64,000 nucleotides of DNA, taken from Eubacteriales bacterium. Its GTDB lineage: Bacteria; Bacillota; Clostridia; Oscillospirales; CAG-382. Below, piece after piece: positions 7,420-13,790 of this stretch; position 1 is the first letter of the stretch, and each line of letters starts with the position of its first letter. Where the stretch lies: NCBI GenBank assembly GCA_041672465.1, contig JBAYZO010000007.1, positions 367 through 64,366 of the forward strand, written 5' to 3'. The notes beneath the pieces were generated by a model that saw nothing but the letters and a program-made list of their open reading frames with translations, did not search any database and had not been told where the DNA came from. Position numbers and translations under genes: made by a program.

Positions 7420-9147
7420 TTATGTTTCGCGCATTAGCTGAAAAGAATTTAGCAGGTTAAGGCTGCCGTACCCCCAGCGGTTGTTCGGGTAAACCATGTT
7501 TTCGCTTCGGTTGCACCCGCGTATTAAGTACGCCCTTATCTGATAAGAGCTTATAGTCGGGTCGTTGCCTCTCACAAGCCCCCATTGCAAAAGCAGCGCG
7601 GACGCCCCAGCCGTTATCGCCGCCGCGACGCTCGTTCCGTCCATTGCTCCCAGCCCATACGGGAAATAACCGCTTATATTCACCCCGGGCGCTACAAGGT
7701 CGGGGGCTAACTCGCCGGTTCTTGACGGCCCCCACGAAGTGGCGGAATAAAGGCTGTTTGTCCGGTAATTATACGCCCCGCAGACAATCGCGCCGTTCAT
7801 CGTCGCCGGGACGGTCACGGTAAAGTTGGGGTTGGTGGATAAAAATTCCACGTTTGGGGAGACAAATCCTGTCAGCGGAAGCCAAGAGTGATATGTGCCG
7901 TCAAGAATCAAGTCGCCAAAGACGGTAATTGTCCAGATCCCCTGCGTGGCGTTAATTATTCTGACGGCGCTTAGCTGGCTTCCCGTGCCCTCGAACGGGA
8001 AAAAATACGCTATTTGAACCGCGGCGTCTTCTAACTTCAGTTTTGTTTCGCTTGTTCTCCCCGCTATCGGGGGGACTCTCGGGACAAACTCGCCCGTCGG
8101 GGACCTCACCGCTACCGAAACCCTGTCGGAGACATTCGTCCAGACCCCGACAAGAAAATCCCCCGCGTTTTCCCCGACTTTGATATCAATGTTTTGGGTT
8201 TCGCCCTGAGCGCTTATCGTGCCCTCGGTATGATGTTTCGCTTGGCTTTCGTTCCCCGCGGCGATACACAAACACACGCCGGGGAGCCCGGAAATATCGC
8301 TTAAATATTCCTCAAACAAGGTGTAAGCGTCATGGCTCCCAAAATTCGAGCCGAGCCCGAGACAAATGGCGACCGGCTTTTTAAGCATTCGCGCCCTGCT
8401 TAATATATAATCCACGCCAAGCATTATCGCGCTTGACTCATAAGCGAATTCCTGTTCCGGCGGCACAGAAAATAAATTCAAATAATAAGGCCTCGCCTTT
8501 CTCAGCTTGACCATAATTATTTCCGCGTCGGGAGCGGCCCCCAAGAAATCCCCGACTTCCCTTCCCGCCGCCACTGAGGCTAAAAATGTCCCATGACCCG
8601 ACTCGTCTGTATGCGGCACGACAGAAGCCGGGTTGTCGCTTTGCAACGCCTCGTTGATTTGCTCGTTTGTGTACTCCACGCCGATATAATAATCTTCGGG
8701 GGGAGGCCCTGTTTCGCTTTGGTCATAAATATAGGCTATTTTGCTTGTGCCGTCCTCATATTTAAACACGTCAAGGGTGTAGTCGATTCCCGTGTCCACA
8801 AAGCCGACAAGCACGTTCTGACCTTTAAGGTTTAAAAAGGGCTGTTCCTGAACCTGAACAATCCCGCTGCCTTGAAGACTGGCTTTCCCTAACAACCCGA
8901 GCACAATTGAGTTAAAGCTTGCCGAACCCGTACCCAAACTATGCCTTACCTCATTGTAAACCTGCTGGGTAGCGTAAGCTATGGCGTATCTTCCGTTTAG
9001 TATGTACGCGATCGCGACCTCGTGGTTTTGGAGAATCGATTCGGTAAAAGAGTTTTTTTGAACTATAAAATCAACCGTTTCCGGGTCGTGAAGCAACCTG
9101 CGCAAAAGCTCTTGATTTTTTTCGCTGTTTATTGATAGTTTATCCAT
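7420..9147 (-). CDS. Csp-type subtilisin-like germination protease (S8 family), triad intact
   Basis: Asp VGFVDTGID, His GHGTFLASVAAG, Ser GTSVAAAITAGA. There is an insert of about 300 aa between His and Ser, as in Csp proteases. The gene lies in a csp-sleC neighbourhood. Confidence 0.8.
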   Translation of the reverse strand: MDKLSINSEKNQELLRRLLHDPETVDFIVQKNSFTESILQNHEVAIAYILNGRYAIAYATQQVYNEVRHSLGTGSASFNSIVLGLLGKASLQGSGIVQVQEQPFLNLKGQNVLVGFVDTGIDYTLDVFKYEDGTSKIAYIYDQSETGPPPEDYYIGVEYTNEQINEALQSDNPASVVPHTDESGHGTFLASVAAGREVGDFLGAAPDAEIIMVKLRKARPYYLNLFSVPPEQEFAYESSAIMLGVDYILSRARMLKKPVAICLGLGSNFGSHDAYTLFEEYLSDISGLPGVCLCIAAGNESQAKHHTEGTISAQGETQNIDIKVGENAGDFLVGVWTNVSDRVSVAVRSPTGEFVPRVPPIAGRTSETKLKLEDAAVQIAYFFPFEGTGSQLSAVRIINATQGIWTITVFGDLILDGTYHSWLPLTGFVSPNVEFLSTNPNFTVTVPATMNGAIVCGAYNYRTNSLYSATSWGPSRTGELAPDLVAPGVNISGYFPYGLGAMDGTSVAAAITAGASALLLQWGLVRGNDPTISSYQIRAYLIRGCNRSENMVYPNNRWGYGSLNLLNSFQLMRET

Positions 9148-9509: not shown

Positions 9510-11201
9510 TTATTCACGGTATAATATAAGGTTATCCATCGTGGCTATCAGATCCAAAAGCCCATACCCCCATGATGAGTTGGGGTAGCTCACCGGGAAG
9601 GTTCTATTCGCGTTCCTGCAAAGGAAGGCTTTTACCTTCTGCCCGAATAAAAACACGTCGTTTTGGCGCACAATCCCCCACTCCATCATAAGAGCGGCGG
9701 CTCCCGTGACAAACGGCGCGGCAATGCTCGTTCCGGTAAACGTGTCGTACCCGCCGCCCACGGAAGTGGTCAGCACCGTGTCGCCCGGAGCGATAAGATC
9801 TGGCTTTTGGCCGTAAACAATATAAGGGAGCCCGCGGCCCGAAAAAAACGCGCAGGTGTTTTGTATCCCCGAATATCCGCCAACCGAAATAACGCTGAAC
9901 GCCGTCGCCGGTATTGAAAGGGTGTTTTCGGGGTTCGGCACTAAAAAAGCGGTTTTTTCAGTCACCATATCTGTCATTGGCAGCCAAATATTGATCCTGC
10001 CGTCGACAATAATTATCCCTTTTACGGTGAGCCGCCAGATTTCCGGTCTCATGGGGCCGCCTATGCCCTCCATTGTTATATATATTTCCTGACTGAAATT
10101 ATAATGCGTGGGCATTCCGAAAAGTACCGTCACCCTCACGTTGTCAAGCACAACGCGTGTGGCGCGGTTTACCGCGCTGATAACGCCCGACGATTGCCCA
10201 GAGGGGGATATCAGCTCTATTTCAAAGGTGTCGGCAAAATTCTTCCAAAACGTCAGGTAGAGCTGTCTTATGTTTTCACCTATGGAATACTCAATGCTTT
10301 GGGTGGCGTTTTGAGCAATTACTCCGTAATAGTGATGCCCCGCGGAACGCTCGTTCCCCGCCGCCACGCAAATAACCGTTTTCCACCGAGTGGACGCCGA
10401 ATCAAGGTACCCCTCAAACAAAGACGTGCCGTTATGAGCGCCGTCGTTGGTTCCGTAGCTTATGTTAATGGCGATGGGCATTTCAAGACCGACCGCCATA
10501 TCAATGCAAAACTTAACCCCCCGCATTATCGCGGTGCTTCTGGCGAACCCGGGCTCGACGTCTTCTTTTAGCTTAACCACCACAATCCCGGCTTGGGGGG
10601 CGACCCCGCTGTCCTCGCCGTTGCTTGAACGCCCGTTTCCCGCCGCGACTCCCGCGACTGCCGTCCCGTGGCCGAGGTTGTCAACCTCCGGCACAACAGC
10701 GGCGGGGTCGTCGCTTGTAAGGGCGAGGTCAATGTCTTCTTTTGTGTAGAGATGCCCGCTTATAAAGCCGTGCGGAGGCGAGCCTTCCGCGTTTTGATCC
10801 CACATATAAAGTATTCGGGTTTTTCCGTCGGATGTCCTGAAGTCGGGGTGAGTGTAGTCGATACCCGAATCAATTATCCCCACAAGCACTCCCGCGCCGT
10901 TTAAATTATATCCCCTCTCCTGCTGAACGTTTGTCACCCCCGTCAGGTTAAGGCTCCGCCTCAGCTGAAAAGTCAATGTTTTGGGGAGTTCGTAAAACTC
11001 CACTTCGTTTATGGTTAAGAGCTGGGGTAATTTATAGACGGGGATAACAATTATGGCGTAATTTTCGTTAAGCTCTTCCGCTTCCGCGGATAGCGACTGC
11101 GCGATATTGGCAAGACTGCCGTGATATTTAATGATTACCTCCACTTGTTCTTCGGGGTTAAGCCCCGGCAGCTGCCTGAGCAGGCGTTCTTGCGTATCCA
11201 T
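9510..11201 (-). CDS. Csp-type subtilisin-like germination protease (CspB-like), triad intact
   Basis: Asp VGIIDSGIDYTHPDF, His GHGTAVAGVAAGNG, Ser GTSIAAPFVTGAAALM. RBS GAAGGAGA. Divergent from sleC. Confidence 0.85.
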   Translation of the reverse strand: MDTQERLLRQLPGLNPEEQVEVIIKYHGSLANIAQSLSAEAEELNENYAIIVIPVYKLPQLLTINEVEFYELPKTLTFQLRRSLNLTGVTNVQQERGYNLNGAGVLVGIIDSGIDYTHPDFRTSDGKTRILYMWDQNAEGSPPHGFISGHLYTKEDIDLALTSDDPAAVVPEVDNLGHGTAVAGVAAGNGRSSNGEDSGVAPQAGIVVVKLKEDVEPGFARSTAIMRGVKFCIDMAVGLEMPIAINISYGTNDGAHNGTSLFEGYLDSASTRWKTVICVAAGNERSAGHHYYGVIAQNATQSIEYSIGENIRQLYLTFWKNFADTFEIELISPSGQSSGVISAVNRATRVVLDNVRVTVLFGMPTHYNFSQEIYITMEGIGGPMRPEIWRLTVKGIIIVDGRINIWLPMTDMVTEKTAFLVPNPENTLSIPATAFSVISVGGYSGIQNTCAFFSGRGLPYIVYGQKPDLIAPGDTVLTTSVGGGYDTFTGTSIAAPFVTGAAALMMEWGIVRQNDVFLFGQKVKAFLCRNANRTFPVSYPNSSWGYGLLDLIATMDNLILYRE

Positions 11202-11302: not shown

Positions 11303-12547
11303 TTGAACAATCAAATAAACTTGACAGACACCGGACTTCTCAACGTAAACGTCACCGCCGTCCGCAATTCCATGCCCGTTCCGGAGGCAAAGGTGCGGAT
11401 ATACGAAGCCGACAAGCTGCTTGAAGAGCTCGACACCGATTCCGCTGGGCAGACGGTCACGGTTGAGCTTGGCGCCCCGCCGTTTGAGCTCTCCCAAGAG
11501 CCGTCGGAAATCAAGCCGTATTCCGTATACAACGTCGATATTGTGGCGCCCGGTTTTGAAAGAGTGTTCGTCGACGGCGTTCAAATACTCCCGCGGACAA
11601 CGGCGATTCAAGAAGTGAAGATGATACCGATTCCCGATACCGAAGACGAGGAAACTCAGCTTATCAACATAGCGCCAAACACGCTTTTTGGCGACTTCCC
11701 GCCTAAGATTCCCGAAGAAGAGGTTAAACCGCTCCCCGACGGCAGGGGATTTATTGTGCTGTCCGAACCTGTTATCCCCGAATTTATGGTGGTGCATTTG
11801 GGAGTGCCCAACGACGCCACGGCAAAAAATGTCTGGGTGCCGTTTAAGGATTATATCGCGAACGTCGCCTGCTGCGAGATATACTCGACTTGGACTCCCG
11901 AAACAATTAAGGCAAACATTCTCGCCATTCTTTCATTCGCCCTCAACAGGGTGTATACCGAATGGTACCGCGGAAAGGGATTTTCTTTTACAATCACAAA
12001 CAGCACCGCTTATGACCAGTTTTATGACCACGGGCGGAACCTTTACAGGAATATCCAAAGGATAGTCGACGAAATTTTCACCACTTACATAACGCGGCCG
12101 GGAATCCGCCAGCCCCTTTTTACCCAGTTTTGCGACGGAGTAAGGTCAACATGCCGGGGAATGTCGCAGTGGGGTTCAAAGCAGTTGGGGGATTCGGGTC
12201 TTGACGCGCTGTCGATACTCCGCAACTTTTACGGGAACGATATTTACCTCGCGCAGGCGGCAAAAGTTCAGGGCGTGCCCATGTCTTACCCCGGCGAGCC
12301 GCTGAGGGTGGGTTCGGAAGGCCTTGACGTAAGGCTTATTCAAACTCAGCTCAACAGTATTTCAAACAACTACCCCATGATACCCAAGCTTGCGGTCGAC
12401 GGAATTTACGGCCCCAAGACCGAAGAATCGGTGAGAACCTTCCAGCAGATATTTTATCTCCCCCTCTCCGGGGTAGTCGACTTTGCCACATGGTACCAGA
12501 TATCAAATATTTATGTGGCGGTGACAAGGCTTTCTGAGTTTGGCTGA
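11303..12547 (+). CDS. sleC: spore cortex-lytic enzyme SleC (pre-pro form)
   Basis: TTG start 5 nt after AGAGGTG. The N-terminal beta-sandwich pre/pro region (LLNVNVTAVRNSMPVPEAKVRIYE...PYSVYNVDIVAPGFE) resembles SleC. The central region has NVACCEIYSTWTPETIKANILAILSFALNRVYTEWYR...SQWGS. The C-terminus is a PG_binding_1 repeat (GSEGLDVRLIQTQLN...VDGIYGPKTEESVRTFQ). Confidence 0.8.
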   Translation: MNNQINLTDTGLLNVNVTAVRNSMPVPEAKVRIYEADKLLEELDTDSAGQTVTVELGAPPFELSQEPSEIKPYSVYNVDIVAPGFERVFVDGVQILPRTTAIQEVKMIPIPDTEDEETQLINIAPNTLFGDFPPKIPEEEVKPLPDGRGFIVLSEPVIPEFMVVHLGVPNDATAKNVWVPFKDYIANVACCEIYSTWTPETIKANILAILSFALNRVYTEWYRGKGFSFTITNSTAYDQFYDHGRNLYRNIQRIVDEIFTTYITRPGIRQPLFTQFCDGVRSTCRGMSQWGSKQLGDSGLDALSILRNFYGNDIYLAQAAKVQGVPMSYPGEPLRVGSEGLDVRLIQTQLNSISNNYPMIPKLAVDGIYGPKTEESVRTFQQIFYLPLSGVVDFATWYQISNIYVAVTRLSEFG

Positions 12548-12550
12548 AAT

Positions 12551-13483
12551 TTATTTCATACGCAGTCTTCGCTCGGAGAGATAAATATTTGTCCTTAAAA
12601 CCCTTTCGTTTTTAACCTTGACCCATTGGTTTTTGGGTAAAAAGTGTTCGTGCCGCACGCAAACGCAAAACATAAAAGGCGGTTTATCTTCCTCGGAGAG
12701 GTTGAGCGGGAGCTCTATGGGGATTGATAAACCCCTTGCGTTTGTCTTGCCGCGGTAAACGGGCATATGCCTGCCATGAGTTCCGTAATACACAAGCAGG
12801 TCGGCGTTTGAAACGCCCGAAGTTTTATCGTCTTCTTTTCCCACAAACACATATAAATTGCAAAAATTTCTCCTCCCCTGCGGGTAAAGCTGGAAGAACG
12901 GGCTTCTTTTCAAGGTTTCCTCACCTCCGGGCGTTCTCTCAAATGTTTCGGCAATGCCTTTCGCGATCCCGACAGCGCATTGTTCCGGGTTGTTTGACAC
13001 AAAAGTAAAATCTCTCTTATTTGTAATAAACCCCATGTTCAAAGTCATCGCGGGCATTTTAAGTCTATGTAGCAGAGCGTCGCCCCTTGCCTTAACGCCG
13101 CGGTTTTGACATTTTGAAACTTGGCTGAACCCCTCAAGCACGTTTTTGGCGAGCTTTGTTATCTCTCCCATCGGTTTTGCCACCATTGCTTCTACACCGT
13201 TGGCGTATGGGTCGCTTGACGAGGCAAGTCGAAGACTAATAAAATAATCGGCGCCCCAGTCGTTGGCGTCCGCCGCGCGGGAAGCGAACGAAGTCTGTTT
13301 TGCCATTACCGGTTCGGTAGCGGCATCCGAGCGCGACAATTTTATCTCATACCCCCGCGCCTCCAGCGAAGCGGCGAGGTGAACGCCGATTTCATAGGTT
13401 AAATCTTCTTCTTCCCTGCCGTCGGGCGACGATTTCGTATCATACCCTTTTGGGTTAAACCCTTGGTCAATGTATATTTTCAC
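12551..13483 (-). CDS. Amidase_3 (CwlD-like) domain protein with degenerate active site plus a C-terminal beta-sandwich domain
   Basis: GTG start 8 nt after AAAGGAG. The fold motifs are present but substituted: IDQGFNP for IDxGHGG, ADYFISLRLAS for SIHxN, and LNMGFITN for VExGF. Confidence 0.7.
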   Translation of the reverse strand: MKIYIDQGFNPKGYDTKSSPDGREEEDLTYEIGVHLAASLEARGYEIKLSRSDAATEPVMAKQTSFASRAADANDWGADYFISLRLASSSDPYANGVEAMVAKPMGEITKLAKNVLEGFSQVSKCQNRGVKARGDALLHRLKMPAMTLNMGFITNKRDFTFVSNNPEQCAVGIAKGIAETFERTPGGEETLKRSPFFQLYPQGRRNFCNLYVFVGKEDDKTSGVSNADLLVYYGTHGRHMPVYRGKTNARGLSIPIELPLNLSEEDKPPFMFCVCVRHEHFLPKNQWVKVKNERVLRTNIYLSERRLRMK

Positions 13484-13649
13484 TCAAATCGCTCCTTTAT
13501 TTCTCTATAATTGAGTATATGGGAAAACAGCCCAAACTGACAAAGACGGGAGTATATTGTCAAAGAATGATTAATAACGCGCTTAAAAAGCCAAAATACA
13601 ATATAACGAAAAATTATAACGCTTTTAATAAGCGGAAAGGAAAATTGAA

Positions 13650-13760
13650 ATGGCAAAGCAGGGAATGAAAAGACCCGAAACAACAAATGACAAAAGCAAA
13701 AGCAAATCAAATAAATCCCCCCCGAAAACAATTAAAGCCAAAAGCGGGGGAAAAAGCTAA
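13650..13760 (+). CDS. small basic ORF (36 aa, MAKQGMKRPETTNDKSKSKSNKSPPKTIKAKSGGKS), hypothetical
   Basis: Below the ORF-track size cut-off. The ATG lies about 8 nt after GGAAAGGAAA, and the stop abuts the hairpin terminator at 13764-13785. Confidence 0.4.
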   Translation: MAKQGMKRPETTNDKSKSKSNKSPPKTIKAKSGGKS

Positions 13761-13790
13761 AAAAAGCACCCGTCCGAGGGTGCTTTAATA
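13760..13790. terminator. bidirectional hairpin terminator (small ORF / cotJC)
   Basis: AAGCACCC (13764-13771) pairs with GGGTGCTT (13778-13785), flanked by an A-run and a T-run. Confidence 0.7.

Follow-up and report, generated by a model that had tools for sequence, protein, structure and literature searches.

A 64,000-nucleotide stretch of DNA from a Eubacteriales bacterium (assembly GCA_041672465.1, contig JBAYZO010000007.1, positions 367 to 64,366; referred to here as the window) carries, tail to tail with the cortex-lysis gene sleC, a gene whose product joins an Amidase_3 fold with a degenerate active site to a C-terminal beta-sandwich that is a homologue of the SleC N-terminal 'pre' domain. 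The preferred reading of this protein, called the pseudo-amidase below, is that it has two domains, no catalytic activity and an accessory role in the SleC/Csp cortex-lysis cassette, and we give this reading a probability of roughly 0.55. The gene and its parts are as follows, with pLDDT denoting the predicted local distance difference test score of the AlphaFold2 (AF2) model.

12551..13483, minus strand: pseudo-amidase coding sequence, 310 aa, GTG start at 13481-13483 and TAA stop at 12551-12553
12926..13483, minus strand: amidase part, residues 1-186, Amidase_3 fold with degenerate active site
12887..12925, minus strand: linker, residues 187-199, disordered, AF2 pLDDT <50
12554..12886, minus strand: C-terminal sandwich, residues 200-310, transthyretin-like with 7 strands, homologue of the SleC N-terminal 'pre' domain

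The N-terminal domain belongs to the Amidase_3 family both by sequence and by fold. Pfam Amidase_3 (PF01520) aligned to residues 3-178 over profile positions 1-173 of 174, with an E value of 1.2e-25 and a score of 91 bits against a cut-off of 27. The AF2 model of the whole protein had a pLDDT of 85, and a Foldseek search of the PDB with this model returned Amidase_3 structures (CwlV, CwlD and Rv3717) at E values of about 1e-13. The best match was to CwlV (1jwq; template modelling score by target, TMt, 0.86; E 6.6e-14), and TMt values ranged from 0.79 to 0.86 across 1jwq, 7rag and 4rn7. The motifs that define the fold and the groove, namely KIYID, ANxWGADY, QNRG, MPA and GFITN, are retained. 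In contrast to this family membership, the His-Glu-His set of zinc ligands and the catalytic Glu of the VExGF motif are not present. The first zinc His is replaced by Phe9 (IDQGFNP; 13457-13459, codon TTT), the second zinc His by Arg85 (SLRLAS; 13229-13231, codon CGA) and the catalytic Glu by Asn149 (LNMGF; 13037-13039, codon AAC), while the Glu ligand is retained as Glu25 (13409-13411).

These positions were assigned from residue-level phmmer alignments to 4rn7, 5emi, 1jwq and 7rag and from a 98-sequence family alignment, and the two approaches agreed. The same three replacements and the retained Glu had been read by eye in a preliminary description of this DNA, and they stand: none of the profile-based or structure-based alignments restored His, His and Glu at the metal and catalytic positions. 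The preliminary description had also set the whole of IDQGFNP against the general motif IDxGHGG. Here only the His-to-Phe change is meaningful, because the normal motif of this subfamily is itself IDQGHNP, and the remaining motif differences do not count as degeneration. The codons for Phe9 and Asn149 each lie two base changes from the ancestral codon and are thus not single read errors. Furthermore, the strain variants P0096 and P0097, which come from independent assemblies, carry the same three replacements, which brings to three the independent assemblies in which this state is seen. In the family alignment, all 86 relatives outside the sleC-linked clade described below keep the complete set of His, Glu, His and Glu (H-E-H-E, in the order first His, Glu ligand, second His, catalytic Glu). 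With its present residues, the pseudo-amidase is predicted to be unable to cut the MurNAc-L-Ala bond.

It is very improbable that the pseudo-amidase is still a hydrolase that works by a non-canonical mechanism or through other residues. Such a reading could draw on the retention of Glu25, on the preserved fold and groove motifs, and on the two members of the clade that are canonical. However, Phe and Arg now occupy the places of two of the three zinc ligands and Asn that of the general base, the segment that holds the Glu ligand is deleted in other members of the clade (the Y-ND and Y-HD states given below), and the alignments show no apparent replacement His or Asp. Identity with CwlD was also considered and ruled out. 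The CwlD model (TIGR02883) is the best NCBIfam match, at 43.8 bits against an equivalog cut-off of 221.55; the protein has no hydrophobic N-terminus; and the window's genome has a separate CwlD-like amidase (175.5 bits) with a transmembrane segment as its membrane anchor. The same genome also encodes an intact amidase-only paralogue of the IDQGHNP subfamily, and the pseudo-amidase is therefore not the genome's only amidase.

The sleC-linked proteins form a single clade of about 15 clusters with a support of 100/100, and the catalytic residues have been lost in this clade in many different ways. At least nine different degenerate patterns occur, and only two of the approximately 15 clusters, P0002 and P0006, keep H-E-H-E intact. 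The active-site states of the clade, written in the order given above and with a hyphen for a deleted Glu-ligand segment, include FERN (the window), HEHN, Y-HD, Y-ND, YKQE, YELG and YEQG. At the first His, the second His and the catalytic Glu, P0100 has Ser, Thr and Glu, P0101 has His, Gln and Glu, and P0102 has His, His and Asp. Because P0002 and P0006 keep all four residues, the clade probably descends from a sleC-linked amidase that was active; the predicted loss of catalysis is lineage-specific and has happened many times over. One further entry, P0099 (151 aa), starts part-way into the amidase domain and appears to be a truncated gene call.

The C-terminal domain is a homologue of the SleC 'pre' domain. 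When it was modeled alone with AF2, it formed a 7-strand beta-sandwich with a pLDDT of 87.7 and a predicted template modelling score (pTM) of 0.80. A Foldseek search of the PDB with this model, which bears directly on the structural likeness to the SleC N-terminal region proposed in the preliminary description, placed four chains of 9h68 in the top four positions (template modelling score by query, TMq, 0.72-0.75; E 3.5e-5). The 9h68 entry is the C. difficile pre-pro-SleC zymogen, and it aligns to residues 10-412 of the SleC encoded in the window. The next matches were the transthyretin-like domains of carboxypeptidases D and N, at a TMq of about 0.5. When the full model was used as the query, 9h68 was likewise the first match that was neither an amidase nor a carboxypeptidase. 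The alignment presumably falls on the N-terminal domain of 9h68, which is its only sandwich of that size.

Profile comparisons led to the same assignment. In hhalign, the C-terminus of the window's clade matched the SleC N-domains with a probability of 96.7% (E 3.7e-10, 76 columns), and the C-terminus of its sister clade matched them with 99.1% (E 1.5e-18). A hidden Markov model (HMM) of the SleC N-domain was built from 30 N-terminal domains that had been gathered across the order by whole-genome search. This HMM matched the C-termini of the sister-clade amidases at E values of 1e-10 to 1e-17 and those of most members of the sleC-linked clade at 1e-4 to 1e-6. The likeness is to the 'pre' domain and not to the propeptide that is cleaved by Csp, which corrects the pre/pro resemblance noted earlier. 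Direct sequence comparison gave no such signal. Pairwise BLASTP of the C-terminus against SleC residues 1-132 gave no alignment, SleC residues 1-120, run through a word-indexed protein search, found no protein other than the query itself, and Pfam held no family for the beta-sandwich, with only sub-threshold matches to CarboxypepD_reg and bMG3.

Across the clade, 26 columns of the C-terminal domain are invariant. They include Cys208, Cys273, Cys275, Arg277 and His278 (window 12650-12667 and 12860-12862). Neither the SleC pre domains nor the sister clade have the three invariant Cys and the His, a cluster that may be a metal or disulfide site. Between the two domains, the relatives P0101, P0102 and P0098 have a Pro-rich linker expansion. 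In P0101 (691 aa) and P0102 (544 aa), PTPAP-type linkers run to a few hundred residues; the linker of P0098 is shorter, and the active sites of these proteins are partly degenerate.

The beta-sandwich accompanies SleC catalytic domains well beyond the window. In all 30 loci that were fetched for matches to the SleC N-domain, a SleC catalytic domain lay directly 3' on the same strand. When the C-terminal profile was run over 401 genomes, it matched, beyond orthologues, small beta-sandwich open reading frames (ORFs), and the SleC catalytic domain was directly downstream in 8 of the 9 weaker loci that were fetched. The module was found in several arrangements. In the fused form, it is the N-terminus of a canonical prepro-SleC of 410-540 aa, and csp genes are adjacent in 12 of 18 loci. 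In the split form, a gene of 134-190 aa is followed directly by an N-terminally truncated SleC, as at L104, L105, L110, L111 and L138-L143, which come from genomes of the same taxonomic order; a stand-alone sandwich gene with its truncated SleC is a natural split prepro-SleC. The long form is 600-930 aa in length and has several PG_binding_1 repeats. The window's own genome has a second SleC-like gene of this long form (contig C42, L146, 1464-3212, 582 aa), whose product has an N-terminal beta-sandwich, a SleC catalytic domain and extra PG_binding repeats and which lies away from the csp cassette.

In the amidase-borne form, which was found at five loci of the sister clade (L004, 2710-5371; L010, 5935-8365; L011; L012; and L020), an active (H-E-H-E) amidase of the IDQGHNP type bears the sandwich at its C-terminus. 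The amidase gene runs into the start of the next gene, a SleC whose first residue corresponds to about residue 150 of canonical SleC. This SleC has no pre/pro region and has several PG_binding_1 repeats, and no csp gene is nearby. The pair has the look of a cortex-lysis operon of two enzymes that is free of Csp control. The window's gene represents a fourth arrangement, in which a diverged module sits on a dead amidase and the convergent sleC encodes a module of its own. Unlike the sandwich of sister clade B, that of the window has no SleC catalytic domain immediately after it on its own strand. Because the module can be encoded in trans and always occurs with a SleC catalytic domain, it appears to be a SleC-binding, folding or control element.

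The neighboring genes of the cassette in the window are listed below.

11303..12547, plus strand: sleC, 414 aa, from a phmmer match to 9h68 at E 1.1e-130 and from Pfam
11321-11632, plus strand: SleC 'pre' domain, approximately residues 7-110
9510..11201, minus strand: cspB-like subtilase with CspB prodomain (Pfam PF18425 and PF00082), divergent from sleC
7420..9147, minus strand: second csp subtilase of the cassette (Pfam PF00082 and synteny)

The SleC of the window has an N-terminal beta-sandwich 'pre' domain, a SpoIID-like lytic transglycosylase domain and a PG_binding_1 domain. The pseudo-amidase gene is tail to tail with sleC in 11 of 11 species-level loci (the window, L001, L002, L003, G122, G366, L115/G091, L116, L117, L118 and L119), and cspB and the second csp follow where the contig allows, so that the synteny with sleC extends to the relatives. 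The cspB gene adjoins sleC in all full-length loci and is a member of the conserved cassette. The two stops lie 1-110 nt apart in the eight loci for which both gene ends were called. The flank upstream of the pseudo-amidase varies by locus and may hold a TetR gene, GerA-type receptor genes, an AP endonuclease gene or cotJABC. Linkage to cotJABC was considered as a conserved feature and rejected, given that cotJ is separated from the gene by 3.6 kb in L001 and L002 and is missing from L115-L119.

These neighborhoods bear on the view that the protein is a structural component of the spore coat or cortex which has no specific link to SleC and merely shares a sporulation neighborhood. In the window, cotJABC is just upstream and the region is rich in spore genes, as this view would predict. 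Across loci, however, the linkage that is conserved is the one to sleC and not the one to cotJ, and the C-terminal domain is homologous to the very module that precedes SleC catalytic domains in the 30 of 30 and 8 of 9 loci described above. A purely structural role is therefore improbable.

The pseudo-amidase is rare. In the genome collection, four loci were matched well past the amidase domain, and three of these are full-length members of the clade. The word-indexed search recovered nine clusters of full-length relatives, and a search of 1.84 billion representative proteins recovered six clusters at E <= 1e-30 together with two long-linker variants. The gene is present in 5 of 12 sampled species of the genus and in 3 of 401 sampled genomes of the order, and canonical sleC was found in approximately 16 of 301 sampled genomes of the order. 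The cassette of amidase, sleC and csp also occurs in a genome from another GTDB family (L134/L115, G091). The SleC pre domain of G091 is 54% identical to that of the window, compared to 48% for a genome of the same family, which hints at lateral transfer of the cassette. The carriers are uncultured Clostridia of anaerobic digesters and the gut.

Selection on the gene was estimated at the strain level from two variants with flanks, L132 and L133, as the ratio of nonsynonymous to synonymous substitution rates (dN/dS). The value was 0.11 for the pseudo-amidase overall, 0.16-0.18 for the dead amidase domain and 0-0.025 for the beta-sandwich; for comparison, it was 0.039 for SleC, 0.018 for CspB and 0 for CotJC. 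An overall dN/dS of 0.11 means that the gene is maintained and not decaying. The beta-sandwich is the tightly constrained part of the protein, with 0-1 amino-acid changes against 11 base changes; relative to L132, none of the 11 base changes alters an amino acid. The amino-acid changes between strains are concentrated in residues 14-60, which form low-confidence loops around the dead site. In mirror-tree-style distance correlations over 9 loci, in which one control was a fragment, the nominal partial r was 0.44-0.58 for the SleC N-terminal domain and 0.10-0.29 for the SleC catalytic domain.

These rates make it quite improbable that the gene is simply on its way to loss, that is, that it encodes a former SleC-partner amidase which is now functionless and not yet disrupted. 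The long branch of the window's protein, its rank as the fastest-evolving gene of the cassette, its patchy presence in the genus and the repeated loss of catalytic residues are what would be expected of such a gene. In contrast, its ORFs are intact and of conserved length in approximately 15 clusters, its dN/dS is low overall and near 0 in the C-terminal domain, and 26 C-terminal columns have remained invariant across the clade.

The difference in constraint between the two domains also raises the possibility that only the sandwich works, acting in trans as a second SleC pre domain with a chaperone or inhibitor role, and that the amidase part is vestigial and does not bind peptidoglycan. This is consistent with the contrast in dN/dS and the clustering of strain changes in the N-terminal domain, with the many different states of the active-site positions, with the stand-alone modules upstream of truncated SleC in many genomes, and with the very different linker lengths of P0101 and P0102. 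However, the N-terminal domain is itself still constrained (omega 0.17) and keeps its fold and groove motifs, and no member of the clade has shed the amidase domain. A protein with only one working domain is thus possible but unlikely.

Under the preferred reading, that of a two-domain accessory protein, the dead Amidase_3 fold would probably be kept as a scaffold or for a surface that binds peptidoglycan, and the sandwich would most likely contact SleC, either through its catalytic domain or through its pre domain. Through this contact, pro-SleC could be helped to fold, positioned or restrained in the developing or dormant spore. The fold, the lost catalytic residues, the homology of the module, the strict synteny and the purifying selection are what the analysis shows; attachment to peptidoglycan or to SleC, sporulation-phase expression and any effect on germination are what we infer. 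A broader proposal is that the pre domain is a general trans-acting SleC-control module, and that in the pseudo-amidase the dead groove senses the chemical state of cortex peptidoglycan and the sandwich relays it to SleC, keeping pro-SleC inactive or in place until germination. This proposal is tentative at best, and we regard it as doubtful.

Several observations weigh against an accessory role in the cassette. The two clusters with intact catalytic residues imply that the shared role of the clade may not be a non-catalytic one. The SleC N-domain HMM does not match the C-terminus of the window's own protein. When the C-terminal profile was run against the library of 1.84 billion proteins, it matched the rare clade, the two long-linker variants and some repeat proteins and did not reach SleC at a library-wide E <= 1e-3. 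The pseudo-amidase gene is absent from most genomes that have canonical sleC, and the protein is therefore dispensable for SleC function in general. Between species, it evolves the fastest of the cassette, with identities of 37-41% for the N-terminal domain and 43-54% for the C-terminal domain, compared to 49-57% for the pre domain and 77-82% for the catalytic domain of SleC. The tree branch that leads to the window's protein is three times as long as the median branch.

At the 3' end of the gene, the sleC stop (TGA, 12545-12547) and the pseudo-amidase stop (TAA, 12551-12553) are separated by 3 nt and the genes are convergent, which is the spacing that had first been reported. No terminator-like site was predicted at the junction, and a hairpin across both stops was not stronger than shuffled sequence (z -0.89). 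An overlap of the sleC and pseudo-amidase mRNAs at their 3' ends, which the preliminary description took to be necessary, is plausible. At the 5' end, the sequence AAGGAG is located 8 nt upstream of the GTG start, and two further candidate elements were found.

13763..13786, minus strand: terminator-like hairpin after cotJC, with a 9-bp stem, 5 GC pairs and then a T-run on the minus strand
13514..13543, minus strand: promoter-like site TTGTCA-18-TATACT, 10/12 consensus matches, about 30 nt 5' of the start, a consensus match only

The hairpin is strong and terminator-like on both strands, with the T-run only on the minus (cotJC) side, and sets the cotJABC operon apart from the pseudo-amidase. 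Assignment of the promoter to sigma-E or sigma-K, judged by eye, was unconvincing and was dropped. An 83-aa ORF at 13484-13731 on the minus strand is hydrophobic and of low complexity, overlaps the promoter region and the GTG start of the pseudo-amidase, and looks spurious. As read from its sequence, the pseudo-amidase has no signal peptide or transmembrane segment and starts straight at strand beta-1. The cluster P0001/P0095 is a letter-for-letter match to it.

How SleC is folded, placed and silenced in dormant clostridial spores is only partly understood, and the job of its pre domain is unsettled. In C. perfringens, SleC loses its prepeptide during sporulation and has its propeptide cleaved by Csp at germination (PMC3567191), and the prepeptide is needed for active enzyme, as PMC3567191 cites it from Okamura 2000 (pmid 10972804). 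In C. difficile, the pre/pro cut is made by YabG (bioRxiv 10.1101/2024.06.10.598338). YabG (Peptidase_U57, PF05582) was not found in the window's genome, which is 97.5% complete, and removal of the pre domain by YabG therefore cannot be assumed here. The present results identify the pre-domain fold as a portable module that travels with SleC catalytic domains and can sit on a separate polypeptide. They lead to the testable hypothesis that the module acts in trans on SleC, and nature already supplies split, fused and amidase-borne variants for such tests. To the few dead enzymes that are retained in the germination machinery, they add one from Amidase_3. The practical impact is limited for now, because the carriers are uncultured. 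If the module does exert control in trans, the sleC-linked pseudo-amidase would be a new class of germination regulator.

A literature search found no paper that describes a sleC-linked dead amidase, and the public names of the relatives are only automatic ones, such as 'N-acetylmuramoyl-L-alanine amidase'. The closest known proteins to the N-terminal part are the Amidase_3 enzymes CwlD, CwlV, Rv3717 and AmiA/B/C, which have the same fold over the entire domain. Unlike these enzymes, the window's protein has two zinc ligands and the catalytic Glu replaced, carries an extra C-terminal sandwich and has no transmembrane segment or signal peptide. The C-terminal domain has its homologue in the SleC pre domain, and both are encoded in one cassette. 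The copy in the pseudo-amidase, however, hangs on a dead amidase and not on a lytic transglycosylase and is not known to be cleaved off, and its sub-type has the invariant Cys208, Cys273, Cys275 and His278 and an FFQLYP lead-in that SleC does not have. The layout of a zinc-hydrolase alpha/beta fold followed by a transthyretin-like sandwich is also that of the carboxypeptidases D and N (M14); Foldseek aligned the full model to 1qmu and 2nsm over 264-272 columns across both domains with 11-13% identity. The likeness is in architecture only, as these are eukaryotic peptidases that are functionally unrelated.

Other non-catalytic proteins offer conceptual parallels. CwlM of mycobacteria is reported by Boutte et al. 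(2016, eLife) to be an Amidase_3 homologue with a regulatory function in place of wall hydrolysis. It is reportedly cytoplasmic and controlled by phosphorylation, activates MurA, and is not known to have a beta-sandwich or a link to spores. The CspA and CspC pseudoproteases of C. difficile are likewise dead paralogues that are kept as germination regulators (PMC13434707, PMC3567191); they are subtilases whose roles have been shown experimentally, whereas the role of the pseudo-amidase is one that we infer. In Bacillus, YpeB is also a non-catalytic neighbor of a cortex-lytic enzyme, SleB, and is needed for its stability or control (PMC13393411). YpeB is co-transcribed with sleB and has unrelated domains, whereas the gene described here is convergent with sleC and joins a dead enzyme to a copy of SleC's own domain.

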